38,455 bases of DNA from Candidatus Omnitrophota bacterium (GTDB lineage Bacteria > Omnitrophota > Gorgyraeia > JABMRN01 > RBG-13-46-9). Where the stretch lies: contig JAFGLX010000021.1 in NCBI GenBank assembly GCA_016927795.1, positions 1 to 38,455 on the forward strand. Direction: 5' to 3'. Below the pieces are notes generated by a model. It saw only the letters and a program-made list of their open reading frames with translations, made no database searches and was not told the DNA's origin. Below, in pieces: positions 4,143-35,700 of the stretch (the first letter of the stretch is position 1; each line of letters starts with the position of its first letter). The position numbers were made by a program, and so were the translations under genes.

Positions 4143-4859
4143 CTACAGTTTTATTACCGCTTTCTGAAAAGCAAATATTTTTTTTAGCCCTTTTTGCGCG
4201 AGACCTACAAGGCTGTTAAGCTGTTTTACGGAAAACGGTTGGCGTTCAGCCGTTCCCTGTATTTCTATGAGCTTGCCGCCCCCTGTCATAACGACATTCA
4301 TGTCGACGCTGGCGCAGGAATCCTCCTTGTAGGTTAAATCTATCTTTTCTGCGCCGTCTACGATCCCAACGCTTACCGCGGCTACGTAATCCGATATCGG
4401 CAGGGTATCTATAATATTTTCATTTTTCAGTTTTTGCAGAGCTAAAGCAAGCGCTACAAAGCATCCCGTTATACTTGCGCAGCGCGTACCCCCATCCGCC
4501 TGTATTACGTCGGCATCCATCCATAAAGTCCTTTCGCCAAGCTTGACCTGGTCAACCACCGCCCGCAATGAGCGGCCTATCAGGCGCTGTATTTCCTGTG
4601 TTCTGCCACCCAGCTTTCCTCTCGAAGCCTCCCTTATTGTTCTCGTTTTGCAAGAGCGTGGAAGCATCCCGTACTCAGCAGTAACCCAACCGACACCCTT
4701 ACCTTTTAAGAAGCTCGGGACGCCGTCTTCAACGGACGCGGTGCACACGACTTTTGTATTACCCGTTTCAAAAAGGCACGACCCCTCGGCGAATTTCATG
4801 AATCCCGGAGTGATTTTTATTTTTCGTAATTCTTTGCAGCCTCTTTCTTTCATACTCAT
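4143..4859 (-). CDS. rph: Ribonuclease PH
   Basis: Track ORF of 238 aa. Motifs present: [66 protein letters not shown]. It sits directly upstream of rdgB, which is the classical rph-rdgB pairing. Confidence 0.95.
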
Positions 4860-5444: not shown

Positions 5445-6287
5445 CTATACAATACAGCTTGCATTCCTGGTTATATGGCACCCGACATTTACGGCAACCG
5501 GCAGGCCCGCTATATGCGTGGGGTATTCCAGGATGTTTGCGCCAAGGCACGTTGTTTTGCCGCCCAGCCCAAGCGGACCTATGCCAAGCGCGTTTGCCTC
5601 TTTAAGAATAATTTTTTCCAAATTCCGCAAATGTTTTTTTATATTATGTCGGTCGAGAGGCACAAGAAGCGCTTTTTTTGCCAGCGAAGCCGCCTTGTCG
5701 AACGTTCCGCCTATGCCTATACCGAGTATATAAGGCGGACACGCGTCAGGGCCGGCTTTTTTCACCACATCCACGATAAAAGAGGCTATATCTTTTTCGG
5801 TGGCGGTAGGACCAAACATCTTAATGGCGCTTTTATTCTCACTTCCGAAACCTTTGGGGACAACCGTTATTTTGAGTCTATCGCCCCTAACTATGTCGGT
5901 GTAAATAACAGGAGGCGTATTTGTGGACGTATTTATTCTTATAAGAGGGCTTTTTACGACGGATTTTCTTAAAATACCTTTTTCATAGCCTTTTCTAACC
6001 CCTCTCTCAACAGCTTTTTTCAACTCACCGCCCACGAATTGTATATTTTGCCCCACCCTCAGATAAACCGATACTATCCCTGTATCCTGGCAGAGCGGCC
6101 GCCTGTCGCGTTCGGCTATTTTCGCGTTTTCGAGGAGGACTCTCAAAATACGCTTCGCAAGGGGTTTAACTTCTTTTTTTAAAGCCCTACGAAGGGCGCG
6201 CTCTATGTCGCTACGCAGATTTAGATTTGCTTTTATACATAGACGTGAAATAGCGTCGCTTACTTTTGTTACGTCGATTTTTCTCAT
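5445..6287 (-). CDS. Class I Fe-S hydro-lyase alpha subunit (fumarate hydratase N-terminal domain family)
   Basis: Track ORF of 280 aa with the CQDTGIVSVYL motif and IGIGGTFDKAA. It lies immediately upstream of the beta subunit, with a 9-nt gap. Confidence 0.85.
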   Translation of the reverse strand: MRKIDVTKVSDAISRLCIKANLNLRSDIERALRRALKKEVKPLAKRILRVLLENAKIAERDRRPLCQDTGIVSVYLRVGQNIQFVGGELKKAVERGVRKGYEKGILRKSVVKSPLIRINTSTNTPPVIYTDIVRGDRLKITVVPKGFGSENKSAIKMFGPTATEKDIASFIVDVVKKAGPDACPPYILGIGIGGTFDKAASLAKKALLVPLDRHNIKKHLRNLEKIILKEANALGIGPLGLGGKTTCLGANILEYPTHIAGLPVAVNVGCHITRNASCIV

Positions 6288-8713: not shown

Positions 8714-8794
8714 ATGCTTAAAAGAAATATAATATTCAAAACAATATGCGTTATCCTTGTGGTAACGTTTATTTTTGAGAACATCCTGTGGGCC
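8714..8794 (+). other. N-terminal signal peptide or signal-anchor of the giant protein
   Basis: MLKRNIIFKTICVILVVTFIFENILWA: a basic n-region followed by about 18 hydrophobic residues. Confidence 0.6.
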
Positions 8795-14700: not shown

Positions 14701-17700
14701 TGTCGAAAATATAAGTAACGGCATGTTAGAGTATTTTACCTCAATAGGAGCAAATGGCAATTTGCCGAAGATTGGCATGGCATTACTCGCATATTTAGTT
14801 TTACTCGGCTCATTTACAGCCAATCTCGGTGATTCGCAAGGAGAGCCAGTAGATGACGAAAAAATAATCGATACCGCTAAATCGTCCTGGTCATATCAGC
14901 TAAAGAGCGCGAACCGGCCCGATTGTCTTACGGTAGACAATGAAGCGGCTATAAGAACGCGGTTAGAAAAAAGCGTATCTCACGAAACCAAAAAAATAGT
15001 ATATGATGCCTTTAAACAATTTCCTAACGATATCTATTGCCTGCCAAGGAAAATGCTTGGCAGGAGAAATGCCTATTTCAGCATGGATTACGGTTTCCTC
15101 TGTTTTGCGGATGAAACGTTCGCCGATATAGGCGCAGACGGAATAATCGGAATCCTGGGGGGAGCGACAAGCCTTTTTAACGAAGGCAGATACGAGGCTA
15201 TTAACGCGTTTTGTGATGAGAAAATAGCGGCTTATTCTGAAGAAAGGAAAGCCAAAGATACCGTTCCTGCCGTAGAAAAACCTGTTACGAAAAAGAAACT
15301 CACCGTGACTGCCCGGATGCCAGAAACGCCTCTTGAAGATTCCCCCGCGCAAAGAATGAAGCCCAAAAAGGTTACCAAACCCGCCGAAACACCCGTGATT
15401 TCGCAAACTGTAACTTCAGAAGCGACACCATCAAAAACACACCCTGCATATGCGCAGCCTGGCGCTGAAAAATCATCTATTCTCCCGGCCATCGTAGATG
15501 TAGGAGGCGGGGAAGACGGTACCATAACCGCGGCTGTACTAAAGATGCGCCTTGCTCATGACGTAGAACGTTTGCTAAAAGGCCGGGGGTGCAGAAATCA
15601 GTTCAGCGTTCGATATGGCCGTTTGACTAACACGGACATATCGGTAGAAGCCGACGTAAGCGATTTAAAAGAGCCTAAATTAAACCTCGCCATTATTTAT
15701 GCATGGGATGAATTAAGTAAGGATGCTCTTTTTAAAATAGCGGTTCTGCCTGACCCACGTACAATAGAGCCGTCCGCGGTGAGGTACAAGGCCGATTTTA
15801 CAAAATATGATGTAAAAACACGCCTTGATGAGGTTAATCCTGAAGTAAATAACCTTTTACCGCTATTTAGCGAAAAGGTAGACGTCTGGAGCAGTAAAAC
15901 AAACAATGAGAAATGGGAATGGTTGGCGGATATAGTTGCGTCATGCCGGAAAATACTGGAGGTACGGCACGGTAAAAGGGAAGATGTCGAGAAGCACTTT
16001 GAAAATTTAAAGCATGAAAACCCTGAACAGGCGGAGGAAATAGACCGGGCAAAAACCTTTATAACCGGCATAATAAAAAAGGAATATGAAGTAACTTTTA
16101 AAATACAGGAAATCATAGAGCGCATAATAGGTTTTGCGGTAAAAGATGAAGTACCGGGCAAATGGGTCAAACAAGCCTTTAATGAGATTATTCCTTTAAC
16201 AGAAAAATGGCCAAGACTCAATCTCGCTTTTAAATCCTATATAAAAATGATATTTTCGGATAGCAAGCCTATGTCTGTCCAAAATGTGGCGAACATGGCG
16301 AACGATCTAAGTAAAATATTGCGTAATGAGAGGATACGTGAAATACCGAATTGCGGGCTTTCGGGGGAGGCCCTGGAGAAATGCTATTATGACGCGGAAC
16401 GCCTGGCCCTTTTGGACATTATCGAGGGTTCGCCAGATGCGCAAACCAGCTTGCATAGAAACGGGGTTCTCGGTATTCTTAAAGAATTTTCCGCTTCTGA
16501 CCGCGTTCCGTCTTACCGCCTTCTTAAGTCTGCCGTTGACGTATGTTACGGCACTATAGACCTTGTAACTAACGAAGTGTTTACCGAACTTATCAGGGAA
16601 AATTCACATGTAGAACGAGAGGATATAAAGGAACTTGATATACCTCTGGGAGGAATGGGTATTCTAATTTTGAAAAAAGACCATTCTTCCGGAGAAGATA
16701 AATATAAAATAAAACGTTATATAGAAGGCGCAGGCAACCTTATTTATCCGACAATAATAAGCGCAAGTTACCAACCTTACTGTTTTAAAGGGGAAGAATG
16801 GTATGATAAAGGTGATGCAGCCGTATTTTTATATCCTTCTTGTGGGGAGTGCCCGAACATGGAACAAATGACGATGTTTATGGAGGATTATTTCTATTTC
16901 TGCTTGAGGACCTCGACCTTCCCCGATGTCATGATGGGGGCCGTAGATTCAAATGGAAACGTATTCGCCAGGCGTCTGAACATATCGCCGGGAGACATAG
17001 AAGACTGGTATAAGGTAACGCGCTACGTTACTATAGGTTGCGGGCTTTTTAACACAAGATTGAGAAGACCCCTTGAGATGGACCTTGCCGTAAAAGCATG
17101 CAACGACATTGAGGCTTTGCCCGTAGAAGAAGAAAGAGATAGAACGGGGGTAAGCGTAACATCCGGAGGACGCGCTTTCTCCTGGGAGATGAAAAAGAGT
17201 AAGTTTAGAAGTATCGTAACCCGCATCGTCGGCAGGATCAAAGGGTTTACTAAAATTTTAGAAAACGGTTTTAGAGCTTACGGAATTAGCAGGCGAAATA
17301 TAGAATCCCATCTTAGGGCAATACAAAGGCGCATTCCGGATGGATGGAAAATATTAAGCAATTTCGAAATGTACACGCCGGACAGAGCGCCAGATATGGA
17401 CCTCTTGGATGTGCAATTACCGCTTATCTTACATAAGCTTATTATAGCAACCGGCGAGGAAACAGCGCTTTATGCGTACAATAACAGGACATTTTTCGAG
17501 CCGGTTTTTCTGGAGAAGCTTTCCGCAAAAGATGAGGCGGGATGCAGAGAACGCCGGCAAGCGCAAAAGAAAAAAGAACGAAGGGAGACCGCTCTTACGT
17601 TGCAAGGTATACGGAAAACGGATATACATAACCCCGAAGAAGTAATCCTCGCCCTTAATAAGTGTTCCGACATGCTCGCAAACGGGATGGAACCCAAATT

Positions 17701-20700
17701 CAGCGAAGAACTTTGTAAAATACGCGCGCAACTTGCAGAAAAGTTTTTCTCAGTACTGCTTAAGGAAATTGATGACCTTTTTGAAGAATTTAAAAGCGGA
17801 AGGAACTTTGACACAGGCTCAATATACGGTTTACTGAATAGATGCAGAACTGCGCCGGAAATAGCCGTCTATAATGAAGGTGCAGAATCAGATTTACTGC
17901 ATCTGGTAGATATAGCTACGAAAAAATTAAGTATTATCGATATATATGCCGGAAGTAAAAACTATGCGGAGCATCTTCTGGAAATCGAGGAAATAAGCCC
18001 CGATGTTATAAATGAGGCTACAGGTTTTATACAAGAAGCCGATAGTTGTGTAGAAGGGCTCGATGAGGGAGAAGAGGCTCCGGTTTTAGACAGGTTTGCC
18101 GAACTTAAGAACGATTTTAGGGAAAAACTTAAATATTTGATCAGACACGACATGGAGAAGGTTTACGCGGACGGAAGATTGGCTGACACCGTCCAACTCG
18201 AAGACCTATCCAGGCTTCTATCGCGCCTTTCGCTTATGTGCGAGTTGTTTAAAAACATAAGCGAAAATTCAAGAATAGAGGAATATCGCCGTTTCGAGAA
18301 AATGCGGTTGATAACGCAAGCTGTTATGGAAAGAGAGGCCGCGTATAAGGCGTTAGAGGCGCAAGCGCCCGCAAAAATGTCTGAAGAATTGATGTTAAAA
18401 AGAGGCGAACAATTTTCGGTTTATCACCGCTATACGGGTAGAAGGGTGGACATAGTCTTCAACGGAATAATAAGAGAAACTATCCAAACAGGAGACTACA
18501 AAGGTAAAGAAATCCGGCTTGCCCATTTTACTGTTAAACCTCCTTATGGCTTTATCCCGGTAAGCGGCAACGAGCTGGCATATTCACAGCGCAAACGCGA
18601 AAACTGGCGTTATCCCGGATTGGAAAAGTCTCTTGCGGAACACAAAAAGGCCATAGATACAATGTATTCCTTTTTAACAGAACAAGAAATTAAATGTTCC
18701 GAGCGCCCGGGTAAGTCAGGTGTAAATAACCAGTTTTGGCTATTTGTCCCGAATATATTTGAAGAAATAATAAAAGACAAAAGTGTTGTTGCAGGAGAAA
18801 CAGATTCAGAGGGTTCGATACCATTCAGTAGAGTAGCCAGGGATGCCGGTTTATCGATAGAAATCAGTTTATTGCGCGAATCAAGCATAGGGGGTGAGGA
18901 AGTATATATAAATATATCTGATAAGTTAGACCAGTATGACTTCGAAGCGCTTGAGGTAAGCGCTCCAGTAGCAAGGACAAAACCGCGAGGAAAACCCGCG
19001 TCTAGGATTTCAACAGTAACCGGCGTATCAGGGGTATCCGAGAAAAAAAGCTTACATATTTCGGATGGAATACCGCAAATGGAAACCCCTTCCGATACCC
19101 CGAAGATGCGTTTTACAGACGACGACGAGAGGGAAGCAAGAGATTTCCAGCAGGGCAGAGGACGCTTCTTTAAGACACCGAAAATAAGAACTATACATAG
19201 GGCCGGAAAAAGAGCCGCAAAAAGAGATGATGCGCAACCCGCAAAGAAGGGGAGAAAAACCGGCGAAATCCAAGAATTACAACCATTTATTAACGACGTA
19301 CAAAGAATACTAACAGATGCGGGATATGAAAATGGGCTTAACGGACTTAGCCGTGTGGAAGAAAGAGAGCTTTTTGAAAAGCATACCGGAGAATCCGTGA
19401 ATCTTCTTGTCTACTCGCAACTTTTGTGGATTATAAAAATCGCGTGGTACTATTGCGAAAAGAATTATGGCGTACATATAATGGATTTAGTTCATAGCGG
19501 TATGGACACTGTAAGAAATATTTTGACCAATAAACATCCGTCTGCATCAAGGTTTGACCCGACAAAAGGCAAACTCAGCACTTTTACTACACAATTCATC
19601 CACTGGGGAATGATGAGTTTCCTCGAAAACGAAAACCGCCTCCCCAATATCGACGACTTTGCGTTTTTTGGAACAGGCAGGGATATTTCTTCTCTCGAAG
19701 CGTCACCGCTTCACAAGGAGAGGGTTAAGCAACTTTTTCGTTACCTTAATGACCGGGAAGAGGAGATAATAAAGTTATTTTTTGGGCTGAACGGCAACCC
19801 TTCATTGTCCACCGAGGAGATCAGCGTTCTTTACAGACATTGTATTTCTCCGGTTACTGTTGAGAAGAAAGTGAGTACAATTGTAACAAAACTCTGCCTT
19901 TTGGGAACAAGCGGCGAAAATTCTCTCAAAATACTTAACGAGGATGAGAAAAAACACCTTTTTTCGCTTAAGACAATCCGCATGGTAGAGGATTTCGTAA
20001 GTGACCCGGACAAAAGAGCGACTTTAGATCCACGCGATTGCGAGATTCTCGAATTGCATTATGGCCTTTCGGGTGAAAAGCCAATGGGCTTTCGGGAAAT
20101 GGGAGGGCGTTTTCATCTTAGCAAGACCCGCCCGTCGCAGTTGTGCGCAAGGGCAATGGCTAAAATAAGAGAAAGTTACGAATCTGCGTGGGAAAATATA
20201 AGTCGTTCAACGGGCATAACGGAAGAAGGCATGCGTGAGGCTTACGGCAGGGCAAAGGAAAAAATCCAGCCTAAAGACAGTCTTTTGAGGGCTGAGCGCG
20301 CGCTTCCTGCGTTGGACGAATTCGTATCGGAATTATCCAAAACGGCCCGTTATATCACTGAAAATATAGCCGAGCTTCTTATAGCGCACTATAATTTAAG
20401 GCATCCGGTCGACACTCTGGATTTCCACCAATATTCTATGCCGAAAAAGATAACCCTTGAAGGTGACGAGGAGCTTAACTTTGAAAATGTCGTGAATTTT
20501 ATAGAAAACAAGGAAGGATTGACGAGCTGGGAGGATATAGCCGGATATTTCAACGCTTCCGGCGAAAGGGTGACCGTCAGGCGATTAAAAAAGAACTTTT
20601 ACGCTAAATTAAAGGAATACGCCAATTCCCAGCGCGAAAAACACAGGCTGGGCGTCCCGGACGGCGTTATTCCCCTCGTCTATGACAGAAAATACACGGA

Positions 20701-23700
20701 ACGGTTAAAAAAGGTCATTAAAGCTATTGAGGGAGAAACCGCGAAGGAAAAAAGCTACCGGCTGGGATTAGCCTCGAACATAGAAATATACAAAAGGTTC
20801 CCACATTATAAATCACGGCAGGCTTTAAGAAGATTATTCAGGGCTGTAAAAAGAAAACAATTCCTTTCTGACCTGAACTCAAACCGCAAATTTTTAAACC
20901 GTCTCGGAACGCCGAGGCGCATTCTTCTTGATATCGTGGAATACCCGGCACTCTATATAAGAGATGCCGTTAATAGCACAGTAAGTGACGCTGGATTAAC
21001 GGCGCATGCAATAACCGATGCCGCCAGCGCGAAATACCGCGGTTTGCGCAAAATGCTTAATAAGATTAATCTTGCACAGATAAATTACAACCTTTTTATA
21101 TTACAGGATGAAACGATGTATTCATCCGATGATACCGGAGAAAGAAAATACCGCGACCAGATTTTAAGGGTTCTTGAAGAGTTGGGAGGGCTTGGAAGTC
21201 CCGAGGAAATAGCGCACATTTTGCGGAAGTATTACTATATTGGAGCAAAAGGGCAAACCGTGGCCGAACACGCCAGAAAAATAGACTGGAAAAAACTTAA
21301 TGAAGATAGAGAATCCAGGCGGATTTTCCCGCTTCGGGTTATTTACAAAAAAGGTGATTTGAAAAGCGCTAATGGCGTACCTTGGGTATCAAAAATAAAA
21401 GAGGCATTTCTTGAAAAAACCGGCAGCCACCGCAATTTTTCACCTTTTGAAAAAATAACATTGCCCATGTTGTATAAACGCATAACCCGTTTAGTTCGCG
21501 GTAACGGCAATGGAAATGGGGCAAAGGAAGTTATCGAAAATTACTTTAGGCAGGCTGCCGGACTTACATTAAGAATCTCTACGAATCAAGAAATGAAAGT
21601 GGATAGGGATAGCTTTTTCCGATATGGCGTTGAGAGAGCGCTCAATTTGACTTCCGCGCAGCTTGCCTTAAACGGTGAGGACGGCTTTATCAAGAAATTT
21701 GAGCATAACTTAAGAAGAGTGGCAATCGGAGAGTTTCCTCTTGCAAGCTCTTCTTACGCGTACTGGTTGGAGCCGCGGATAGAAAAGGCCCGGGAACCCA
21801 TTCCGGACGCGGAAACTGTAGAGGTTCAGCCTTCAGGTGTACGTTTTACTACTGATAAAGAAGAAGAAGCACGGGCTTTTCAACAAGGCAGGGCGCGCTT
21901 CTTTAAGACACCGCGGAAAGAGATGTCCAAGAAGCCATTGTTCCAACATGTTATACCATTTGAGCGAGGCACGACACCGGAGGATATACTAAACGGAATA
22001 GATTTGGATAAAATAGTCGGCGATATGCTCAAATTTATATCATCCCATACGGAGATAGCTTATGATATAAAAGAAAAGATTACAGACCCTCAATCGGATC
22101 TTGACTGGTTAATGCGGGAAACCGTCGAAAACGCGCTTGATTCGATAGCGTTAAGGTTCAAGCGTGATAGAAGTTTTTCCTGTGGCATAGTAGAAATAAA
22201 GGCATATTGTGCGGATAGGACTACCCTTATTATCGAAATTGTAGACAACGGAGAAGGCTCAATAAAAAAGAGCCAGAACCCCTGGAAAAAAAGAAATGCT
22301 AAATCTCTTGGACTTGCCGGCCGTTTTAAAGGGGGAATGCGTCTTATTTATAAAATTGCGAAAGACTTAAGTGGCAAAGCAGAGCTTGTGAACCGAAATG
22401 GTACCAAAGGTGCTATACTCAGAGTTAAATTAACCTCCCGCAGGCCGAAGATAGAAGAAGCGAAAAAACCCGTTCCGGATGCGGGATCCGAATATCACCT
22501 GCCGTCATTCGGGCCATTAATGATATTTTTCGCCTTTTGGTTTAATTACGAAAAGCTCAAAAGATTAATCCTATCGCTGCAAGGCATTTTGAAAAAAATA
22601 GCCGTAAAATGCCATCCGAGTACAGGCCCACCTCAAGTAGTATCCGCTTTTAGCAGGGCATGGAAGGCTATAGTCGAGAGCAAGGCCTGGAATATATTTT
22701 TGGGTTCATCGGCTATTTTTACTTTAGGTGCCCCAATTTTCTGGTGGGCGCTTAAATACGGAATGCAGAAAGATGCCTCTCTCGTTACGGTTATCGCCAG
22801 CTTCCAGACAGTGGCGACGTATTTTATGGCCACCGAACTTGTAAAAATCGAAGAACGCGCTCTAAAAAAGTTTTTTGCCGTTTTACTCGTTACACTAGGC
22901 GTCCTTTCATTTTCACTCGCCAAGCTTTTTGAGGCAAATTTCGCAATAAATTCTGTCATAGGAATAGTTTTACTCTCATCGGCGTGTATTTTTATATTTC
23001 CAATGCAGTATACTTTCGGCGCCAGAGCCACGCAGGCGCACAACGTGAATCCCAACCTTTTGACAGCGTTAGGATTTAGTGTGGGGGCAATCACATCATC
23101 AATCATCCAGCTTATGATAGAGCCCGCTTTGGCCCTTAATCCTGTGGGACTATTTGAACATCTGTCGGCGCCTATTTTCACACTAAACGTTTTCTGTTTC
23201 TTATATGTACTGAAAGAGCTGATACAGTGGCTTCCGTATAATTATTTTCTAAAAAAACTCGGGGCGTCCGTGACGCAGGCCTCGTTTGCGACAGTGCCTT
23301 TCATAACCTTCGCTATAACGCTTTTCCTTGCGCCTTTTAATATTACACCGGGTTTGGTGGCTATTTTTATAACGTCGATTATGATGGTTGTAGGGGGTAA
23401 TATATGGCTTGTCCGCCACAGTAACCAAAACAATACCGGCGCGAAAAATAAATCGAACCTACTTTTTATATGTACTCTTCTATTTATAGCGGTTATCGCC
23501 AGGGCAACAGGGCCTGTTTTTGGCATAAAACTTGTTACAGGACCGGAGGACTTCTCTTTCATCCAGGCAATGTTCTCCGTTAATTTACTTTCGGCGGCTT
23601 TTTCATGGATAGTAGTTGCGATGTCGCCCGGACGAAAAACAAAGCCTAAATATTCCGCGCTGAAAACGTTTGTATTACGGTACATGCTGTTTAGGGGAAC

Positions 23701-26700
23701 GAAAATTAGATGGCCGGACAATAAATACAACCGTTCATTGAGGGCAAGAATCGAGCATTTCCGGCAGGACTTAGATAAAACAAACGCCTGCCGTAACGGA
23801 AAGATTATTTTGAGCGACAATCCGGATAATCTTATAACACGTTTGAGTTTCACATCGTTTAAGAACAGTAAAAAACCCACAAAGTTTGTCGGGGCAGTTA
23901 TTACGGCGGTAAACGATAAAACGGCAACCATAAAAATATACGGTTACAATGTGCATAACACAGCCGAAATTTTCAGGTCGAAAACCAAACCGGTAAAACC
24001 GGTATGCGAGATTGAGCTGGCGACCGTTGCGCCGCTCGATGACGGTGACAATCCCGCGGAGCTTGAGGAACTAATGAGGGATTACCAAAACTACTTTTTC
24101 GGGGAAATTTTCTGGATAGAACCCGTTAGAGATAAAATTAACGATAACGTAAAAGAAGAATTTCCGTCCACTACGCCACAAAACCGCCTACCCGCAGTAA
24201 GTGCGGAGGATAAGGTGGCCAAGCTTTTACCCAAACCGGCAAATCCAGTCCAGTCGGTAGGAAAGGAATGGTGGCTTGAGGACAGTCACGGTGGTATACT
24301 CTGTCCGATTTCAGCCATGAGAAGAAGAAGCGGGCAGGGGATAGGCGATTTAAGATGCGTAGATTTATTTCTGGAGCTAATCAATAAAAAGAAATTCGAT
24401 TTTGCCATGTTTCTCCCGACATCTCTTACAATGCCCGATGACCCAAGCCCGTATAACAGTATAAGCGTCTTCGCGAATAACGCCATAGCGCATATTCCGC
24501 TTGATGAATTAATCGGAAAAGATGTTTATGAGTCGTATCTGGATCTTTTTGTCGCAAAAGAGTGGCATTGGTTAATGGAGCATAACAAAATACGTCTTAT
24601 GCAACACTTAAACCCGGCCTTGATAGAAGAGATGAAAGGCATGATGGTTGTTGCGGACAATGAGTCCGCGCGGAATAATCTAAGGGCTTATCTTAAATCC
24701 ACTATAAAAGACGCTAAGAAAGCCGCCAGAGTAGACTATCCACTAATATACAGGTTCAATAATTTTGTACTTAGACAGGAATTTGAAAGGGTCTTTGAGA
24801 GACTGGCAAGCGGCTCTGTTGAGGCGTTTAACGTTTATGTCAATAAAAACGCGTACTGGCTTAAAGACTATAGCCTGTTCCACGCGCTACTCGATTATCA
24901 TAAAGGTTTTCCCTGGTGGACGTGGGAAAAGCCGTATCGCAACCCGGCTTCCGGCAATGCCGATTATAAAAAGATTATCGCGGAATTTTCCGGAAAACAT
25001 AAAAAAGAAATACTTTTTTATCAATACCTTCAGTGGCTTTATTATGAAAGATGGCAGAAAGTCATCCGGCACGCCAGGAACCTGAATAAAGAACTAATAG
25101 GGGACATGCCTATATACCCTTCCTGCAACAGCGCGGAGGTATGGGCCAATCAGGATTTATTCGATTTTTCCAAGACTGCGGGTGCTCCACCGGATATGTT
25201 TAACGACGCGGGACAAAACTGGGGTTTTTATCCTTATCGATGGTTTGATAGAAAGAAAAAAGTGCTCGATTTCTGGAAGAAGCGCATAAGGTACATGGCG
25301 GAATTTTATGACGCTGTCAGGGTCGACCACATTCTCGGTCTTTGTTCGGAGTGGCTTGTCGATTTTGGCAAGGCCGCCTCCGAAGGTAAATTTTATCCGG
25401 AAGACGATTTAGAAGCGGCAAAGCTGGGACGTGAAGTTCTGACAGAACTCGCAAAAACAGCCGCTGACACAAATACACTTTTGATAGGAGAAGATTTAGG
25501 AGTAAGGCCGCCCGAGACGAGGAAGATGCTTGACGAATTGCCATTAGAGCTTAATAACCTATTTTTGTATAACATAATAGGTTGGCGCGAAAAACATATG
25601 GCCAGAAGGCCGCATGTTATGTTTACGGATACCACGCATGACACGCCCCCTGTGTTTTCACTGCGATATAAAATAATGAATGAGGACGAGAGAAGGCAAA
25701 CGGCTGAATTTCTTCAAGCTTATAATGTGGAAATAGCTAGCGGGGACACGGAGGAATCGGTTGAGGCGAAAGTTATGGAAGCGATGCGCAATACAGGCTT
25801 TTATTGTTACACTATCCAGTCTTTATTAAATTATAAAGGTGATTCGCAGTTTAACGAACCCGGTACGGTAGGGCCGCATAACTGGACGTGGATGATGCCG
25901 GAGGAGCTTGAGACGGTTTTGCAGAAAGTAGAATCTACTCCGGAGATGATATTGCCTGAAACCGGCTCCGCAGGTAGCGTTAAACCTGCCCCCGATTACG
26001 GCATATCCATAGTGCCGGGGAAACGCGGCCGCGGGTTGCGTGTTTATGATTCTATCGTTTCAATAACGGTCGCGTATCTTGCATCAGCACTCTGGTTTTC
26101 TATATGCGCATTCGTGGCTGTCATGTTAGCGATAAGCATATCGGGACCGGTAGACCTTTATGAATTTATTTTTAAAAACCTTTTTGCTTTAAATTCACTC
26201 CATTCATGGCTGCTTGTAAGTTTATGCGGTACATCATTTTTATATGTCGGGAGACTTGTCGAAGACATGATATTCGCAAAATTAAATTTCGCTAAAGATG
26301 CCAATCTGTATTTAACCGACCAAAAAGGACAGTCTTTTCATTACAGGGGCCCTTCTTACATAAGTCACGGCATCGCTAAAGATGAACGCCATGTAATAAT
26401 GATAGGTAAATCCATTTTTAGAAAGTTGTATTATTTCCTGAACGACGCCGTTAATGAGATTTCCGCAATGGAGAATATCAAATTTTTGCTTATTATTTCC
26501 TGCAACCCCTCATCCTCTTATGGTGGCCCCGCCGAAATACCTTATATCTATCCGAAATCTGTCGCTATGCAGCGCCCTCTTAGCTTTCTGGGAGGAGTAA
26601 ACCCCTTAAAGGGTAGAAAACGCTATCGTGCGCAGAGTTGGTACGTTGTTTTTCCGGGCGGAGAGGAAGTTGAATTGGGCGAGGCGATAAAGCGTGGGTT

Positions 26701-29700
26701 GCTTGGGGAAACAACCGTGGCAAAGGCGCCGTCCAGCTCCGAGACCACAGAAGTAAAAAACCCGGCCCCGCCTATTGCAATAATCGCCATCGCGGCGCTC
26801 CCTGTTATCGGCAGATTATCCGTTAAATTATGGAAATGGGTAAAACGCGCTACAGGAATATTCAAGAAAACGGCCAAAATGACCAGGGCCGAGAGATATG
26901 TATTTAGACTCAAAAATGAGGCCCAGTATTTTTATGACAGCGCCGTAATGTCATTTGCGAACTCCTCCTACCTCGACGCGATAACTTCTTTTGAGAAAAG
27001 CGCCGATATTTATATAGAGTTACATGGTCTTGTTACGGACAACACTGTTTTTAGTGAAAAATTGCGCGCGATAGCCAAAACACTCAAAGAAATTTTAGAT
27101 TACATAAGTAACGAAGGGGATTATGAAGAGTGCCTGGGGGCGCTGCAAAAACTTTCGGGTATGCAGAAAAGGACGGGTAAATTATCCAATCTGCTTTACT
27201 TAGTCAAAACAATCGCGGGAATGAACGAGAATATAATATCAGCACGCATACAAAGAAGGCTTATGAGTAAAGACGTAAGTTGGAAAGTAAGATTTGACGA
27301 GAAAAATCTTAAAATAGGCGACGCGGTTCTGGATAGGCGTTTTCGTATGTTGCTTTTATACAAAGGCCGCTTTCGCCGAAAGTTAACAGGCATGGCATCA
27401 AGGAAAAGGGCGCACCAGCTAGATTCACCGACGGGACATCAGAGTTTATCTATAAACAGCTTTTCGCAAATAGGGTTACTAAAATTTTTGTTACTTAGAC
27501 CACCCGCATCCTTCTCCCGGGAGTCGGAGAAGGAAGAACCGTCCGCAAAAATATCGAGTTATGTAATTAAGCTTATTGACGAAAATACGGCGGATGCCAG
27601 AATTGTGTTGTGCACCCTTCTTGAGCATAAAGATATAAGCGATACCGTAAAGGGGGTAATCATAACATATGCGACCGGTCCGGAACATGAGCCGATAAGG
27701 GCCCTTCTTCCATCCGTGCGCCACGCCGATAATAACGAAGACGCTCCCGATGACTTCCCCGGCACCAAACGTTACTTTATGACACCGCGAAAAAAACCGA
27801 AGCGGCCATCCAGAAAACCGCCTACCACCGCCAACCCCGGGTTGGAGGTGGTTAGACCGCTAGCCTGGCCGCAGGCACCTGTGGAAGTGTTAACGCAGAC
27901 GGATACAGGTATCTTTCCAAACGCATTGTGGCATGGGAGCGAAGTAGAATTTAATGTTATAAGAAAAGCATTGGGCTTATCCATAAAGGAGTATAGAGCC
28001 GCCCTTAATGCTGGAAAACCTAAACCGCTATCGCCGGTGACAATGGATGTTTATTTGCATCGCAGAAAAAATCCGGTTCCATATTTACACCTTGAATGGG
28101 CACGCAAGCTGTATGCTCAGAACGCCCCGCGCCGGCTTGAGGTATTGCTTAAAAGGCGCAATTTAACCGTCGAACAATTTACAGCCGAGCTTGGCGAAAG
28201 CGGTATTACTGTATACGTGTACGAGATAAAAGAGATGCTGGAAAATAAAAGGCCTGTCCCATATGAAATTTTGATAACCGCAACCAAGAACGACAGTGAA
28301 AAGTCAGGCCCTTTATTTGACAGGATATACCGGTGCTCAAAGCTGGTAGGAATAGAATTCAGTGAGAAGGTAAGCCCCGGTTCGCCTTTACCGAACTATT
28401 ACATGTATGAGATGAGAAGTGGTAAGCGGCCGATTCCCGATGAAATTATGCTTAATGCCCTGAAGCTAAACGTATCTTTGCTGGGCGAAGGTATTACTCA
28501 ATCTTCGCAGTTGCAATCCGAATCGGACGATGTAATACCGCCGGCAGTACAGGGACTGGCGGAGCAGGAAGATACGGCCACGATAATAAAGCAAGATGGT
28601 TTGCCGATTAAGAGCGTATCCGCCGCGGCAAAAAGCGGCGAGTTGCCGGTTGAGAGCGAAAAAAGGCCTATAAAATTTGAATTTCTCGAGGTAGGCCAGA
28701 TAATTACGCTTGGCGGTAGGGACTATAAAATTCTACGCCGATACTTTGCCCATGATAACCATAAATGGATAAAATTAGTGGAGGACATAAAGACGCACGA
28801 AATTTTTATTATCAAAGGTTTCAACAAAGACCATATAGATACCATAAACGCGCTGAGAAATTTACAACACCCCTGCCATGCTAAAATAATTAAAGTGTTC
28901 GAGCCGGAAGGTGCCTTTATGATGCCCGACTATGGAGCAGAAACATTTATCGACCATATATGCCAAAGCGCGGATGAAGGTTTGCCTTTGAAAGAGTGGC
29001 TTTCGGCGAGAGTAAACGAGGTAATATGGCTTTTGGAGGCCATTAAAGAAATGTCCGAAATCGGCAGAGACCATGGCGATCTATTGGATAAAGAACACCA
29101 TATTTTATATTCTGACGGCTTGCCGCACATCGTAGATTATCATATCTCTTCCTTATCCCGAGACCACTCCCGCGATCTTCACGGCATTATTTTGCAGGCA
29201 GAAGAGATAGTACGTACGGCAGAAGCAGCCTATGGATCGGGCGTTCCAGGGACGGGTATTATAGAAGAACTTGGCCGAATATTGGACGATATGAACGGCA
29301 GTTTTGAGCAGACTTTTACAAGAAAAAATGCCGATGAATTTATAAATATTCTGGCACAGTATCTCGATTCTATCGGTATGAAACGCATATCGGCCCAATC
29401 CGTGCTGACGCAGCCCGATTTACCCCCGCATTCGGAAATAGTTACGACTGTTTCTGAACCGATAACGCGGGTTGTCATAATTCCTGCCGGCGGCGTGGAA
29501 TTGCTCAAGCCGCACCAGCCCCCGCTTGAAAGATATAGTATAGAAGACGATGAAAATCTCGGCGAGTGGAGCGGCGGATTACCGGAAGGGGTAGACAAAA
29601 AAGGGTCAGGTAGCAAGCAGGAGGAGTTGGACAAGCCGCTTGGCATTGAACTTGTACCCGGCGTATTTGTACTTGAAGACGCAGTAAATACCGCGCTTGC

Positions 29701-32700
29701 AATGATATATCCTTCAGAAGAACTTCGCAGCAGTGTATTCAGGCCGATGAGCCCGCAGGATTACGACAGATTTCTAGAATTTATACGGCAAGGAGACAGC
29801 AATCTTTATTCCCTTGTTGATAAAACCGCCAAAGGCCTGCGAAGGCTCAACAGCGTATTGCAGCGTTCAATGGCGCTTGCTTTTATAAGTAAAGGAGGTC
29901 TCCTGCAAGATACTAACGCCATACGGCTTAAATTCAAGAGATACTCTTTCGCGGCGGCAGTAAATAATCTTTCGGCAGATGACTACAGATTATTTTATGC
30001 CTATTTTTCATCTCTTTTCGGGCGATGGTGGCAGGAGGCGGCGCCGGAATCTTACGGAAGGTTCATAAGCGGTTTGGAGTATATTGCCGAACACGATGTA
30101 CCACCTGGTCAACGCGAGCGCTTTAATGAAATTGTGACGAGGGTAAAGACGGACGCCGAGCAGCTTTATAAGCTTATGATTCATAATTTCGTACACCATT
30201 TCGGGGGCCGGATTCTGCCTCCCGAGCATAAAGATCCGCTGTCCGGCGGCCTGAGCGGCGAATTGCCGGATGCGGGATCCGAATGGCCAATTACATCTGG
30301 TAGCAGTGGTTATGACTTGCCTACAAGCGTGTTTAATGGCCTTATGGTAAAGCTTCTTGCGGCAGGTTTTGATGAAGGCCAAGCGCAATTGGTTATTTCG
30401 CAATTGTGGCTTGACGCGAATGTGGAGGATTGGAATAAGGCATACGAGATTATGAATCTTCTTATTGATATTATGGTCGTTGCAGGATTATCGCCGCGGG
30501 ATTATAAGGCATTGAACCAGCTATGGGATTTACATTGGAAGAGTTATAAAGAAAAAATGCCGGCAGAGTGGCTAAGAAAAATAAAAGAGGATCTCAGTAC
30601 AATCCCGGTGGAAGAGAGAAAAAATGTTATTGAGAATGTGCCAATTTCAGGTGCTAATTTAGAATTGGTTGGCAGGTATGGCTTAGCTCGCGCAAAGGAG
30701 GCATTCGGGATATCTGGAAAAGAATCGATCGATGCGGATGAAAGAATAGAAAGTAAGGCACTTGTAGCGGATGCTGAAACAGGAGAAAATATTCCTGCTA
30801 CATTTAGCGTTCGAGCGGATAACAGAGACGAAGAAAGCATTTATATCAATTATAAAAGAAGCCCAGATTTTCCGGGATTTAGCGGGTATTTAAAAACCAA
30901 GGTAGATAGAGAATGCATGTATGTAAGTGAGATTAATTCGCAAGAGTGGGATAAGTTGGATACGTCCGCCAAGTCCAAGATAACCGATTGGAGACAAAGA
31001 TTATTAGATGAAGCTATTAGGTGCGCCGGGGAAAGAGGATTGAAAAAAGTCGTCATTGCGCCCTACTGCGCATACAGGCTTATAGGCGGCTGCTCGGTTT
31101 ACAGAGGATATAAGGATTTTACCAGTTTGCCTTTCGAAGCAGGTTTTAAATTGAGAGTTTATGACGAAAAAACATCTTTTAGCGTGCGCGATAAGCATAT
31201 GGCCTCATATATGTTATGGGAATTAGATCTCACGGGGACTGATGCGAGGCCCGTTTCAGATAAAGAAGATAGCGGAGATATTTCAAGACGGGATCTTATA
31301 ATGCCTATATTGGCAGCTCTCGGTATAACGCTAGCGGTATTTTCAAAAGGTCGCGCTCAAGGATTGGAGTTGGACCTTAACGATAAAATAAATGACCAGA
31401 CCGAAGGACGATGCCCTGAAAGTGTAAAGATCGCCATAAACGACGCGCTGAACACGATTACGCGCAGACGCGATATGAGGAGTTATCAGATAGAACGCAT
31501 AGACATAGTTAACGCTGATGGCGGAGGGTTTAATGTTAAATTCGTTGTTAATACACGAAATGGCAGGCCCGAACCTCCATTCACAGACGTCCCGTTTACC
31601 AAACAGGATTTGGCAGACAAGGAATTATTGCAGAGTAAGATTGACCTTGTAACACGCAATATCATCGGCAGAGCATATTTGCCGGTCGAAATAAAGGGAT
31701 TGAAATATATTCGCCACTTAGCCATGAGTTTAATCTACGCTATCATCCCCGCACTTATAATACTTGTTTTAAGAGACGCATTCAGAAGATATCGCGCCTA
31801 TGTTAATTCGCAGAGAGAATCAGAGGCGCTAAAAAGAGAGCATGATTACCAGAAGCGGCAGGCCGACCGCCACGCGGGCTTAACAGACCGGAGCGCTTCC
31901 GATATCAGAAAACGTCGTCGAGGATCCATTATTTTTGGAGAAGATTCAAGAGGCACCTCTCGCGGCAAGGATATATCTCTCGCATTGCCGGGAAAGAAAT
32001 TCGACCTGTCGCCAAGAGACGTAGCGGAATGGCCCCCAATGATAAGGGAATTATTAAGTAAAAAACATAGAAAAATCTGGGAATGGGAGGAGCTTCTCGG
32101 GGCACTGGCCGGTTATTTCCCGGAAGGCCTTGCCACGCCCGAGAATATCGAAAAGATAACAAAAGGCACATTGAAAGCCAAAACCATAAAGTCTGCCTTG
32201 CGCGCTTACGGCATCAGGGAGAAGGTGGGAATTGCAGGCGAAAGGCGTTCAAGGGATGAATGGATAAAGGTTTTGAGAGTCTTATCCGACTTGTGTCCGG
32301 AAGGCGTTCGCACACCCGCGGATATAGCAAAAATTATCCAAGGGTATCTCACGGAAGAACAAATAATAAGCGTGATAAGGCGCCATAAGCTGACATATGA
32401 AGAGACAGGTATTGTGCTTTCTTCTGGTAAACCAGCGGAAACCATTACGGATGCAAAATCCGGATTTGGTAAAGAGAATAAAATCGGCCCCGGGCCGATG
32501 ATGATAGCGCTTTTCGCGATACCGTTTTTTGTGCGCATGTGGAGGCGGTTAACCCGAAATATCGACGGGAGAATAGAACTACCCCCGCTATCCGGCGGTG
32601 GGGTGATTTGGAGAATGCTTCGCACCATTCTGCCGGGCGCATTCGGCCTTTGGGCCGTTCCGCCGGGCAAGCCGGATATGCCGGAAAGGAGAAGCGGTCA

Positions 32701-35700
32701 CGGATTTGCGAAACCTACCAAGAAATTAATTTCTATAGAAGAGGCAAAAAGTCTGAAGCTAAGATATGAACGAATACAGTTATTGGCGCAGAAATTTATT
32801 AATGATTGCGAAAGAGCATCAACGCCTGACGAGATAGTGCAAGCTCGTCAGAAATTTTTGGCGCTAGAAAGCCAGCTTGATCTTATATACGAGGCTTTTT
32901 CGGATATGGATCAAGCCGGATATATTGGTCTTAAAGAATATGTTGACAGCGTAACTGATATGATAAAGAGAATCAACACTGCCTTTCGGATACGTATATT
33001 ACCTTCCTTAAAGGATATTAATGAGGCGGGTTTAGAATCGGCAAAGGAGGAGGACTTTGAACGCACTTTGCTTATGGAGGAAAAAAGTTTGTTGGATAAC
33101 GAATCAATCGCTACCCATAAAACCGGCATCCCAGGAGAGAGCGTCAAATCCGATCAGGTAGTTACAGCACTGGTTGTCGAACAACCGCAGGGCGTTGAAA
33201 TAACGGAGGATATTTCGTTTTTTGATCGAAATTCACAGATGGCACTATATAGCGTCGTTGATGATCTGGAAGTTGTTACTCCTAATATGCTGGTCGCCAG
33301 ATTCGAAGTTTGTGACTATTATTTGCCTTATGAGGTAGTAAAATGGTTATGGCGGCGCAGCCAGCATAATAAAATTCTTTCACGCTTTTTGTTATTATAT
33401 GAAGATTATATGAAACGCGGAAAACCTCAAGAATCTCCAGGCACGGACATCAATATTAAGGATACTTCTGCCTATCAGGACGCGGTGTATCATTTAAAAA
33501 CAGCTCATTGGACAAAGCCTGGATATTGGAATGAAGTCAAGCCGGAGGTAAAAAGAGAACTGATAATACAGGCCATGAAAGAACATCCTTTCGGTTTTGG
33601 CATGTTTGCAAAACCCCTGATATTCCTGAATGGAGGCAACCTCAGGGGGTTATATGCTTATTATAAAGCTAAAGTGGTTACTTCGAAAAAAGGCGGCAAG
33701 ATGGCGCGCTTTGCCGCATTGGACCTCATTAGAAGTGAACTGAATATTCCGGAACCAAAACAGGGCATTCCTTACGAAGAAGTAATCGCCAAGTTAAAGA
33801 AGAAGAAACGGGTTATCTGGCGTTGGGTAAGGCCCGATGTGCAGAAGAGGCTTATACAGGATATGTCCGATGAGCTCGGCAAAGATATCAAAGATTTCGA
33901 TTCGAGCTGGTTTATAGCGACCGTAGATAATAAAGTCCATATGTGTATATATAAAAAATTCGGAGGAGCATCCCTAAATGGTCTTTATCAGTATTATTGC
34001 CGCCTTTACAAGGATCCGGCAGGCAACTTGCCAGTCATAGATATAATGCGAAGTCGCCTCGGCATAGGTATAAAAAATTATACCTTTGAAGAGATGATTT
34101 CGGGATGGCGACAGGGTAAACTTAAAGATATTAGATGGCGCCACGTGCCTTCGGCTGTAAAACGGCAGGTACTTTTTACGCTCGCAGACAAATACCAGAC
34201 GCCTCCGGCAGCGCTTTTTGTCAGCCATCTTGTAGGCGGGCTTGAAGGGGTGTGCCTGACTCAGCTGCTTTATCCATATATGAAGAGAGGCAGAACCGCC
34301 GCAAGAGCATTCCTGCAGTTGAAAAAGGATCTTAAGATACCATCGTTGGATGTAGAATATGTCCTCAAATGTTTCAAGGAGAAAAAAGCGCCTTATTGGA
34401 AAGGTGTTTATTCGAAAGAAGTGCGGCGCAAACTGGTAGAGATGCTTGCGACAGCGTTGGGAATATCTCCGGAAAAATTGATGGCAGGACATTTTAAAAA
34501 ACAGTTACCTGTATTTTTTGACAGGTCGCTCGCTGGCTTAGCCGGGCAATATCTAAGCACAGACGGAGCGTTTGGAGAACCCGAAGTATCGGATCTTCTT
34601 AAAGACGTGGGTATTAAGCGAGTCAGGGAAACAACATTTGAGGAGTTCGAGCGATGCATTGAATCTGGTAGAGAGATTAATTGGAAGAACATGCCGGTGA
34701 GCATTAGACGCGAAGCCATAAAGTTTATCGCGAATAAAATAGGTATTAAACCGATGGATCTGAAAACTAATATGCGTGACAAATATGGAAGTAAAATCGG
34801 CGGACTGGTTGCGGCTTATGCGCGCGAGAATAATCTATCACCAACACTCGAGACATGCAGGCAGATGTTGCGTGACTACAATGCCGGTGATCTTCTTGTA
34901 GAGCAGATTATGCAGGAGATACAACCAGTTCGTTATACAAGGGATAATTATGAGTTGCGGATGGCTCAGTGGAATAGGGCAAAACCAAAGATCGAAGAGG
35001 CGATATCCTGCGGGATGGGAAGCAAGCTTGGCACATCGCTTTGCTCATTGCTTTTTAGCACAGACTCACATGAGCGTGCAATGCGCTTTGAAATATTAGG
35101 CTATCTTCAAAGAATAGATGCCCCGGGATGTACCAGCCCGCTCATTAATTTCATTAGCAAGATAGGCACAGGAGACGTTGAATTATGGAGAGAAAGCAAT
35201 AGAGCATTAGGAAACGTAATGACGGATAACGAAGTGATAATGACTTTGAAAAATATGGCCAACAGTGCTGAGGAAGAAAATAGTGAATCTGCCTCGCGAG
35301 CAGGCTCCAGAAAGGTGTTTAAAAGACGGATTAGATACAATCGAAAAGGTGGGCTGCATATGTATATGAATGGTTCGGTAAAATCATGGCCAGGCGCGAC
35401 ACCCGTCGGGCCTGAGAAACAGCCGTTTATGGATGCCCAGACCCCCGGTCAATTCCCGCCGGACATGGACAATAATGTGGGGCACGGCCAAGGATTTGTA
35501 AAAAGGGTTGAACCACCTGTGGACAGAGGTGATGTTGCATCTCCAGCCGGGCCTCAACCGGTATCCGCATCCGGCGACGCTACTTCGCCAGCAACGGAGG
35601 ACAGTTCGGAGCTTCGCGCGGCGGTGGACAAAAAAAGAGAACCACCTCCATTATCCGGCCCCGGACCTATGATGATAGCGCTTTTCGCGATACCGTTTTT

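Follow-up and report, generated by a model that had tools for sequence, protein, structure and literature searches.

Among the longest proteins known are the giants of the ultra-small, host-dependent Omnitrophota, and what these giants do is almost wholly guesswork. Omnitrophota giants that carry sugar modules have been described, with GT5 glycogen/starch-synthase-like, GT1, phosphoglucomutase and hexokinase/ROK domains (West-Roberts et al. 2023, 10.1101/2023.11.21.568195; 'multi-enzyme metabolic cluster' class, 10.64898/2026.06.07.730766). Amylomaltase, or MalQ (GH77, EC 2.4.1.25), represented by the structures from Thermus aquaticus (1CWY), Aquifex aeolicus (1TZ7) and E. coli (MalQ, 4S3P), is a free, soluble enzyme of about 500 aa. 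Here we describe a member of the same Pfam family that is instead built into a protein of at least 9,914 aa, with membrane helices anchoring it on either side.

The window, a stretch of 38,455 nt, is an entire contig (C70) of a metagenome-assembled Candidatus Omnitrophota genome. A single frame runs through 9,914 codons of it with zero stops and then off the contig, so that the 3' end of the giant gene is missing. Ten or more further contigs of the same assembly likewise consist of a single open frame over their full length. Besides GH77, Pfam finds a beta-CASP/MBL domain (aa 1281-1710) and a sigma70_r4 domain (aa 3769-3820) in the translation.

8714..38455, plus strand: giant ORF hosting the GH77 domain, at least 9,914 aa, 3' end open at the contig end
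24269..25948, plus strand: GH77 4-alpha-glucanotransferase (amylomaltase) domain, aa 5186-5745, bounds set by homology to the nearest relatives

The first-pass annotation had proposed a complete GH77 domain within the megaprotein at 24287-25900, and this identification is borne out, with bounds by homology (aa 5186 to ~5745) that are slightly wider. Pfam PF02446 matches over nearly the whole model (289.1 bits, where the cut-off is 25, and E 8.6e-86, with positions 2-461 of the 465-position model covered), a profile search of the genome contigs places the same family at 24305-25903 with 291 bits, and the Thermus amylomaltase 1cwy matches the domain at E 6e-41 in HMMER. An AlphaFold model of the domain has a pLDDT mostly above 90. 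When this model is compared with the PDB using Foldseek, ranks 1-33 are all GH77 (target TM-scores 0.54-0.82, and 0.76-0.82 for the enzymes of about 500 aa from Thermus, Aquifex, Streptococcus and plant DPE1), and GH13 structures appear only from E ~5e-6. The model and the Foldseek ranking together describe a (beta/alpha)8 barrel with the inserted subdomains typical of GH77 and without the C domain of the GH13 type.

The active site is equally complete. The motifs listed by the first-pass annotation all occur, each exactly once in the plus-strand frame of the giant ORF, and alignment to the Thermus enzyme confirms the catalytic Asp/Glu/Asp and the 250s loop.

25319-25339, plus strand: RVDHILG motif, aa 5536-5542
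aa 5592-5596, plus strand: GEDLG motif
aa 5641-5646, plus strand: THDTPP motif
aa 5714-5718, plus strand: NEPGT motif
aa 5722-5729, ending at nt 25900, plus strand: HNWTWMMP motif
25325..25327, plus strand: Asp5538, predicted catalytic nucleophile (RVDH), aligning with Thermus aquaticus D293
25490..25492, plus strand: Glu5593, predicted general acid/base (GEDLG), in the AEDLG motif with Thermus E340
25640..25642, plus strand: Asp5643, predicted transition-state stabiliser (THD), in the THD motif with Thermus D395
24497..24733, plus strand: helical insertion, aa 5262-5340, about 80 aa long, flanked by the SPY..S.FANN motif and the RVDYP segment

The equivalence of Asp5538 to D293 is confirmed by residue count, RVD5538H falling in the RIDH motif of 1cwy; the equivalents of E340 and D395 are placed by motif alignment only. 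All three members of the T. aquaticus triad Asp293/Glu340/Asp395 have counterparts here, as do Arg291 and His394, and in an alignment of 78 sequences the catalytic D, E and D and the flanking R are invariant and the H nearly so. The 250s loop, PPDMFNDAGQNW, aligns without gaps to the Thermus loop PPDYFSETGQRW and is thus of full length. It retains Phe251 and Trp258; Tyr250 is replaced by Met, at a position that is variable in canonical MalQs too. With these features the segment is a genuine GH77 module and, as predicted from its residues and fold, apparently an active one.

Two features set the module apart from canonical enzymes. The insertion of about 80 aa is absent from the Thermus enzyme, where it appears as a gap in the HMMER alignment, and from canonical MalQs; it is common to the relatives P0001, P0005-7, P0009 and P0013 only, and AlphaFold models it as helical with a pLDDT of 57-86. 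Additionally, after the acid/base Glu the clade has its own LxxELPNLxLYNxxGWR in place of the canonical GxPGMKVLQFAF.

In agreement with these differences, the embedded GH77 falls in a clade of 18 sequences (SH-aLRT 100), across which Asp5538 is likewise invariant. ORFs of at least 1,100 aa supply 13 of the 18 rows, the longest being 20,296 aa, and a gap in score follows the top 16 of 7,407 matches, most of these 16 being long proteins. Other genomes of the phylum carry GH77 within ORFs of 9,642, 20,296 and 59,091 aa, and the domain is also found in proteins of 7,013 and 7,967 aa. As judged from these comparisons, the domain represents a GH77 branch distinguished by an insertion and motif changes of its own, and this branch is housed mainly inside long or giant, probably Omnitrophota, proteins. 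The partners of the domain vary. In P0001 it is flanked by two GH13 alpha-amylase-like domains, and no GH13 partners like those in P0001 and G249 were found in the source genome. In P0005, a GH77 of the same clade is joined to a SAM-dependent methyltransferase within the same helix-free stretch. A search of the genome contigs for related loci returned solely an unrelated malQ from Methyloceanibacter.

Apart from the module, the source genome has a canonical malQ of its own and a full set of glycogen genes, comprising glgC, glgA, glgP and three genes of the GH57 family. This malQ is 25.6% identical to the embedded domain and lies on the opposite side of the branch that defines the clade. A recent duplication of the cell's malQ is ruled out by this identity and by the placement of the two sequences in different clades.

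The reality of the embedding and the competence of the module can each be questioned. The genome is fragmented into 189 contigs, and a separate malQ might have been fused to its neighbours through misassembly or sequencing error, in which case the embedding would be an artefact. We regard the chance of this as negligible. A stop-free stretch of 29.7 kb is not attainable by chance nor by in-frame joining of unrelated genes, GC content is uniform along the giant ORF, and no start codon lies near the start of GH77, the closest upstream Met being 65 residues off at aa 5121; a canonical malQ, moreover, is present elsewhere. Furthermore, independent contigs (114 kb, 710 kb and 272 kb) carry giant ORFs that contain GH77 domains of the same clade, and as the same embedding recurs in independent assemblies, misassembly is unlikely. 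The prospect that corrected assemblies would resolve the segment into a separate malQ gene therefore fails, since independent assemblies embed such a domain in ORFs of 7,013, 7,967, 9,642 and 20,296 aa. The module could also be a catalytically dead glucan-binding scaffold, kept merely to hold alpha-glucan. Some modules in related giants do appear degenerate, as in the Fic motif of P0001, which reads QPFNDGNKR where the Fic consensus has its catalytic His, and the replacement of GxPGMKVLQFAF points the same way. This reading is nonetheless very improbable, as the three catalytic residues and the flanking Arg and His are kept both here and clade-wide, together with GDMPIYP, the full-length 250s loop and the N.PGT..NW.W signature.

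The surroundings of the domain were described in the first-pass annotation as an 11-helix block on one side and another TM cluster on the other.

22502-22552, plus strand: weak eleventh segment, aa 4597-4613, short, mean hydropathy 0.73
22682..23623, plus strand: block of ten TM helices, aa 4657-4970, from a hydropathy scan and a manual helix list
23624..24268, plus strand: linker of 215 aa, aa 4971-5185, starting with the membrane-proximal, Lys/Arg-rich stretch SPGRKTKPKYSALK
26078..26134, plus strand: first TM helix after GH77, aa 5789-5807, mean hydropathy 2.38, with GKRGRGLR just before it
26771..26833, plus strand: second downstream TM helix, aa 6020-6040, mean hydropathy 1.7, followed by WKWVKRATGIFKKTAKMTRA

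Ten of the upstream helices are firm and the eleventh (aa 4597-4613) is doubtful; with two helices downstream, the placement of GH77 between TM blocks holds. A weaker hydrophobic stretch is also seen downstream, at aa 5823-5846. Because membrane helices bracket the module it must be membrane-tethered, as had been suggested. The linker is modelled with a pLDDT mostly below 50 and does not resemble what precedes GH77 in the relatives. Neither the linker (aa 4971-5185) nor the downstream region aa 5730-6129 (nt 25901-27100) has Pfam matches, and no carbohydrate-binding module is found in either.

The side of the membrane on which the module lies was derived from sequence rules, with helices taken from the hydropathy scan and the manual list. 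In the loops of the ten-helix block, 17 Lys and Arg residues lie on the side that holds both ends of the block and 3 on the other. The first 20 aa of the linker contain 6 Lys/Arg and zero acidic residues, and the helix at aa 5789-5807 has 4 Lys/Arg in 20 aa on its GH77 side as compared with 1 on the far side, so that the GH77-facing flanks are rich in Lys/Arg on both sides; this is also the case in P0001, G249 and P0031. [quoted passage not shown] The 20 aa after the helix at aa 6020-6040 hold 7 Lys/Arg, and the roughly 210 aa that separate this helix from the one at aa 5789-5807 fit an external loop. Neither a leader nor a strongly hydrophobic segment is seen in the clade members P0006, P0012 and P0013. 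A SAM-dependent methyltransferase needs a cytoplasmic cofactor, and its fusion to a GH77 of this clade in P0005 argues for cytoplasmic placement as well. The sequence just before the ten-helix block weakly resembles GHKL ATPases, at 17 bits and thus under the cut-off. A global topology by counting helices from the leader was dropped, as four segments are ambiguous (aa 246-264, 1881-1899, 4597-4613 and 5823-5846) and the close relatives P0005 and P0007 would be assigned opposite orientations.

The N-terminus of the giant ORF complicates this picture, as it carries a putative export signal.

8714..8803, plus strand: N-terminal Sec-like leader MLKRN-IIFKTICVILVVTFIF-ENILWADPE, a pattern common to other large GH77-clade proteins

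The pattern consists of basic residues, a hydrophobic run and then DIxWAxPD, and it recurs in P0001, the G249 giant ORF, P0005, P0007 and P0003; a motif scan of the source genome finds one copy only. The leader has small residues at -3/-1 and an N-in/C-out orientation. In P0003, P0004 and P0005 it is present with no other strong helix, so that if it is a real export signal, the GH77 of these three proteins would be exported.

It follows that the module may act elsewhere than at the inner face. GH77 could lie in the periplasm or on the cell surface, within a surface protein used for predation or parasitism, and act there on host or prey alpha-glucans such as glycogen released by lysis; external display on such glucans had been one of the two roles put forward in the first-pass annotation. 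The Sec-like leader, conserved across the large clade proteins, fits this role, as do P0003, P0004 and P0005, in which no strong helix follows the leader, and the array of GH77 flanked by two GH13 domains in P0001, which is typical of glucan breakdown. The literature also favours extracellular, prey-directed roles for many Omnitrophota giants (10.1101/2023.11.21.568195; PMC10066038), and surveys of such proteins with DeepTMHMM call many of their domains extracellular, although they concede that these calls are unreliable (10.1101/2023.11.21.568195; 10.64898/2026.06.07.730766). Against export, the positive-inside bias assigns the two ends of the GH77 loop to the cytoplasm here and in P0001, G249 and P0031, the clade members P0006, P0012 and P0013 lack any signal, and the methyltransferase of P0005 shares a helix-free stretch with GH77; the GHKL ATPase-like match would also lie on the GH77 side if the helix count between them is even. 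External action is, on this evidence, the less likely placement, and it is the leader that keeps it in contention. The other proposed role, in which the module is coupled to an adjacent transporter-like block, is unsupported. The ten-helix block and GH77 are close by, with 215 aa between them, and DMT-type carriers are laid out as bundles of ten helices whose two ends both lie inside. In E. coli, maltodextrins that have been imported are direct substrates of MalQ, a precedent for a sugar or maltodextrin transporter whose imported chains are disproportionated at entry. At E<=5, however, Pfam returns for the block only a chance match to TMEM100, and a search of 5.8 billion proteins (6,258 candidates) yields no homologue at E<=0.001, and hence no similarity to EamA or another transporter family was found at these thresholds. 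A single-sequence AlphaFold model of it is uninformative (pLDDT 41), and the pairing is not conserved, the GH77 of relatives lying behind a two-helix hairpin (P0001, G249) or without nearby helices. We consider functional coupling to the block improbable.

On balance, we favor a model in which GH77 is part of one giant, membrane-threaded, multi-enzyme protein of a bacterium with a small genome and a catalytically competent member of a separate branch, anchored at the membrane's inner face, where it would remodel glucan alongside the soluble enzymes. The module would reside in a cytoplasmic loop of about 818 aa between helix 10 of the block and the next helix. We infer both its enzymatic activity and its physiological substrate: acting on maltodextrins or the outer chains of glycogen, it would break alpha-1,4-glucan chains and join the pieces anew by a retaining double-displacement mechanism that uses Asp5538, Glu5593 and Asp5643. 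A substrate should be available because the genome has glgC, glgA, glgP, GH57 and malQ, and the module would work beside this soluble GlgC/GlgA/GH57/GlgP/MalQ set. A more speculative proposal, which we think rather unlikely, is that the clade is a portable module repeatedly acquired by Omnitrophota giants (with GH13, methyltransferase and possibly sugar kinase partners) to form membrane-anchored assembly lines for the uptake and re-tailoring of alpha-glucan stolen from host or prey, with the leader serving as a dedicated targeting signal and not an ordinary Sec signal. The sidedness of the module bears on whether the 'metabolic' modules of the giants work inside, as a membrane-anchored scaffold, or outside, on the host. 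For GH77 there are simple, established assays, and its function can be tested genetically by complementing an E. coli malQ deletion; the module is therefore among the few parts of a giant protein with directly measurable activity and sidedness.

In comparison with amylomaltase/MalQ, the module has in common the catalytic Asp/Glu/Asp with the flanking Arg and His, the barrel with its inserted subdomains, a 250s loop of equal length and the C-terminal N.PGT..NW.W signature. It differs in its identity of 23% to the Thermus enzymes by structural alignment, in the extra helical insertion near the N-terminus and in the clade-specific motif after the acid/base Glu. Closer in sequence are mid-sized GH77 fusions of the same clade, at 45-51% identity (P0003/P0004 of about 1,300 aa, P0005 of 1,636 aa, and the G117 and G033 loci). 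P0003 and P0005 have the same N-terminal leader motif as the giant ORF; the mid-sized fusions differ in having no internal membrane helices and in their partners, such as the methyltransferase of P0005. With about 25 hydrophobic helices by hydropathy in 9,914 aa, the ORF has the great length and many helices of the archaeovorin/dockerin-type giants (West-Roberts et al. 2023). It differs from them in that SecA_DEAD, dockerin and TSP3 domains, along with GT5 and GT1, give no Pfam match at E<=0.01 across the 9,914 aa present. The text of 10.1101/2023.11.21.568195 and of 10.64898/2026.06.07.730766 makes no mention of GH77, nor does one supplementary file of the latter, and the GH77 branch defined here by its insertion and altered motifs has yet to be described in the literature searched. 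Sugar-metabolism modules in Omnitrophota giants are already reported, and the embedded GH77 is a variant of these: like them, it belongs to a giant with many helices, it is normally a stand-alone cytoplasmic enzyme, its chemistry relates to alpha-glucan, and its sidedness is under the same dispute.

The giant open reading frame (ORF) contains a GH77 domain with an intact active site. A Pfam scan of the ORF matches the family model PF02446 at aa 5198–5730 (E = 8.6e-86, 289 bits, model positions 2–461 of 465), and each GH77 motif quoted in the first-pass annotation occurs once in the ORF, where that annotation had placed it. In a PDB sequence search the domain matches Thermus amylomaltases at E of about 6e-41, with RVDH falling on RIDH, GEDLG on AEDLG and THD on THD; Thermus Asp293 was placed by residue count, and Glu340 and Asp395 by motif alignment. 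When the segment is aligned with 77 GH77 homologues, the three catalytic residues and the Arg preceding the nucleophile are invariant, and the His preceding the third catalytic Asp is nearly so. In an AlphaFold model of aa 4971–5790 built on this alignment, most of the GH77 domain has a pLDDT >90. The top 33 Foldseek matches to this model among PDB entries are GH77 enzymes without exception, with GH13 enzymes only far below, and the GH77 matches include those of Thermus, Aquifex (target TM-score 0.82), E. coli (MalQ), plants (DPE1), Streptococcus and Corynebacterium. The 250s loop is as long as in Thermus and retains Phe251 and Trp258, with Tyr250 replaced by Met. The embedded domain differs from canonical GH77 in an extra helical insertion of ~80 aa (aa 5262–5340) and in a clade-specific LxxELPNLxLYNxxGWR that replaces GxPGMKVLQFAF. 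GH77 enzymes move stretches of alpha-1,4-glucan from one chain to another by a retaining double-displacement mechanism (PMC11046441), and maltodextrins or glycogen outer chains are the likely substrates here.

The source genome bin (1.73 Mb, 189 contigs, 91% complete) contributes contig C70 in its entirety as the window. The giant ORF (8714–38455, + strand) runs for 9,914 codons without a stop, is open at the 3′ contig end and has an even GC content of 0.42–0.47. Genes 5′ of it encode PilZ, AsmA-like, Ham1, RNase PH, fumarase, glutamate racemase and amidase proteins, and give no clue to the origin of the glucan, be it the cell itself or a host. Scanning the ORF against Pfam in 1,000-aa pieces, together with hydropathy and the N-terminal motif, gave the following features:

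aa 1–30 (window 8714–8803), + strand: Sec-like leader, basic residues followed by ~16 hydrophobic residues and then (F)LxxDIxWAxPD
aa 1281–1710 (window 12554–13843), + strand: intact-looking beta-CASP/metallo-beta-lactamase nuclease (Beta-Casp 58.7 bits, RMMBL 45 bits), same polypeptide as GH77
aa 3769–3820 (window 20018–20173), + strand: sigma-70 region 4 helix-turn-helix (29.8 bits), same polypeptide as GH77
aa 4597–4613, + strand: short, weak hydrophobic segment 5′ of GH77 (hydropathy)
aa 4657–4970, + strand: ten strongly hydrophobic helices 5′ of GH77 (hydropathy)
aa 5789–5807 and aa 6020–6040, + strand: helices 3′ of GH77 (hydropathy)
aa 5823–5846, + strand: weaker hydrophobic stretch 3′ of GH77 (hydropathy)

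It is very unlikely that the segment is a separate malQ gene misassembled into the ORF, because 29.7 kb are free of stops and the same embedding is found in independent assemblies (contigs of 114 to 710 kb). Ten further contigs of the bin (C99, C42, C43, C135, C27, C32, C161, C13, C49 and C159) are open from end to end, at 1,236–2,857 aa each, and C14 and C61 start within frames of 4,635 and 4,532 aa. Together these contigs imply that the bin contains well over 30,000 more codons of one or more fragmented giant genes, one of which could supply the 3′ part that the giant ORF lacks.

With helices on both sides, the GH77 domain is membrane-tethered, as the first-pass annotation had proposed. Its 11-helix block comprises ten strong helices and an eleventh segment that is short and weak, and the coupling to a transporter that it suggested is unsupported: Pfam yields nothing for the ten-helix block even at E ≤ 5, no homologue turns up in a collection of 5.8 billion proteins, and the single-sequence AlphaFold model is uninformative (pLDDT 41), so that "transporter-like" describes nothing beyond the number of helices. 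Neither Pfam nor AlphaFold reveals a recognisable domain in the 215-aa linker between this block and GH77. Just 5′ of the block, window 22097–22430 (~aa 4462–4572) matches HATPase_c (GHKL ATPase) below the cut-off (E = 0.0077, 17 bits).

We judged sidedness by the positive-inside rule, applied by hand. In the ten-helix block, 17 Lys/Arg lie in loops on the side of both block ends versus 3 in the alternate loops, and the 20 aa directly after helix 10 contain 6 Lys/Arg and no acidic residue. Four Lys/Arg occur in the 20 aa preceding the helix at aa 5789–5807 versus one past it, and the helix at aa 6020–6040 is followed by 7 within 20 residues. This distribution fits aa 4971–5788 (linker and GH77) as a cytoplasmic loop and aa 5808–6019 as lying outside, and in the relatives P0001, G249 and P0031, too, it is the basic flank that faces GH77. 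Counting helices from the N-terminus settles nothing, because several segments are ambiguous. [quoted passage not shown]

External display, the other reading of the first-pass annotation, is the less likely option, and we regard export of GH77 as rather improbable. It is favored by the Sec-like leader, whose pattern is conserved at the N-termini of P0001, P0005, P0007, P0003 and the G249 giant ORF (L039:16593 onward), and by P0003, P0004 and P0005, which have no strong helix past the N-terminal hydrophobic segment and would export their GH77 if the leader acts as its sequence suggests. Against it stand the Lys/Arg bias and three clade members (P0006, P0012 and P0013) that lack both a leader and any strongly hydrophobic segment. 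So does P0005 (1,636 aa), in which a class I SAM-dependent methyltransferase (aa 253–408; Methyltransf_23, 76.9 bits) and then GH77 (aa 470–1019) come after the leader and internal membrane helices are absent. Export of a SAM-dependent enzyme would be unusual, which puts the leader's role in doubt. The leader meets the −3/−1 rule of a Sec signal, yet its conservation greatly exceeds that of ordinary signal peptides, and a motif scan finds a single copy in the window's genome; these large proteins may use it as a targeting signal specific to their class.

The genome encodes a separate, canonical malQ on contig C22 (499-aa ORF, 592 bits), only 25.6% identical to the embedded GH77. It also has glgC (442 bits, over the curated cut-off), glgA, glgP and three GH57 genes and thus encodes a normal cytoplasmic glycogen pathway; a genome search found no GH13 gene. 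Searched exhaustively with HMMER, 1.84 billion representatives gave 7,407 GH77 matches with a clear score gap: the top 16, mostly long proteins (1,193 to 7,967 aa), score between 561 and 219 bits, and all others fall below 198 bits. A word-indexed search of giant proteins only found P0001 (7,013 aa, 48% identical, labelled Candidatus Omnitrophota and, by NCBI, 4-alpha-glucanotransferase) and P0002 (7,967 aa). Most of 400 same-phylum genomes have a GH77 gene of ~600 aa with 31–36% identity to the query; in this set the nearest relatives (44–51% identity) lie in ORFs of 1,392, 1,323 and 9,642 aa, and remoter matches (31–33%) in ORFs of 20,296 and 59,091 aa. In a maximum-likelihood tree, from which the partial 59,091-aa-ORF match was left out, the window's GH77 falls in a clade of 18 (SH-aLRT 100), with the C22 malQ across the branch; 13 of the 18 come from ORFs of at least 1,100 aa, including that of 20,296 aa.

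P0001 and P0002 have the GH77 domain alone in common with the window's giant protein, and the G249 giant has one further module, so GH77 behaves as a movable module. The additional module is a 390-aa sigma-like region (window 19286–20443, aa 3525–3910; G249 giant aa 6210–6598, L040/L041; 40% identical) that lies 5′ of GH77 here and 3′ of it in G249, an arrangement indicating that giant genes have shuffled modules among themselves. P0001 (architecture at aa ~1140–1600, 1632–1677, 1689–2253, ~2310–2900 and ~4200) carries a GH13 alpha-amylase-like domain (72.7 bits), a two-helix hairpin, GH77 and a second GH13-like domain (33.8 bits); hairpin and GH77 form one unit common to P0001 and the G249 giant. 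A weak GH13 alpha-amylase-like domain also lies 5′ of GH77 in G249, and these neighbors support the view that the clade truly acts on alpha-glucans. Farther on, P0001 has a Fic motif, QPFNDGNKR, with Gln in place of the catalytic His of the Fic consensus, and this module is therefore probably inactive. A separate 2,478-aa ORF of the window's genome (C20:17276–24709) has a C-terminal tail (24182–24565) resembling the post-GH77 tail of P0004 / G033_1323 (32% identity over 131 aa, E = 6e-11), which suggests that these proteins may have a C-terminal module in common.

The labels of its nearest homologues and the giant-gene content of the bin suggest that the window is from Omnitrophota. This phylum is known for giant proteins rich in helices (PMC10066038; 10.1101/2023.11.21.568195), and GT5 glycogen-synthase-like, GT1, phosphoglucomutase and hexokinase modules have been reported in them (10.1101/2023.11.21.568195; 10.64898/2026.06.07.730766). 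These sugar modules share with the embedded GH77 the same uncertainty over sidedness, and the GH77 module, being easy to assay, could be used to test the membrane arrangement of giant proteins. GH77 is unmentioned in the text of the latter two papers and in one supplement of the second. This well-defined GH77 clade, specialised for large modular proteins and here with helices on both sides, therefore adds a variant to a known theme.
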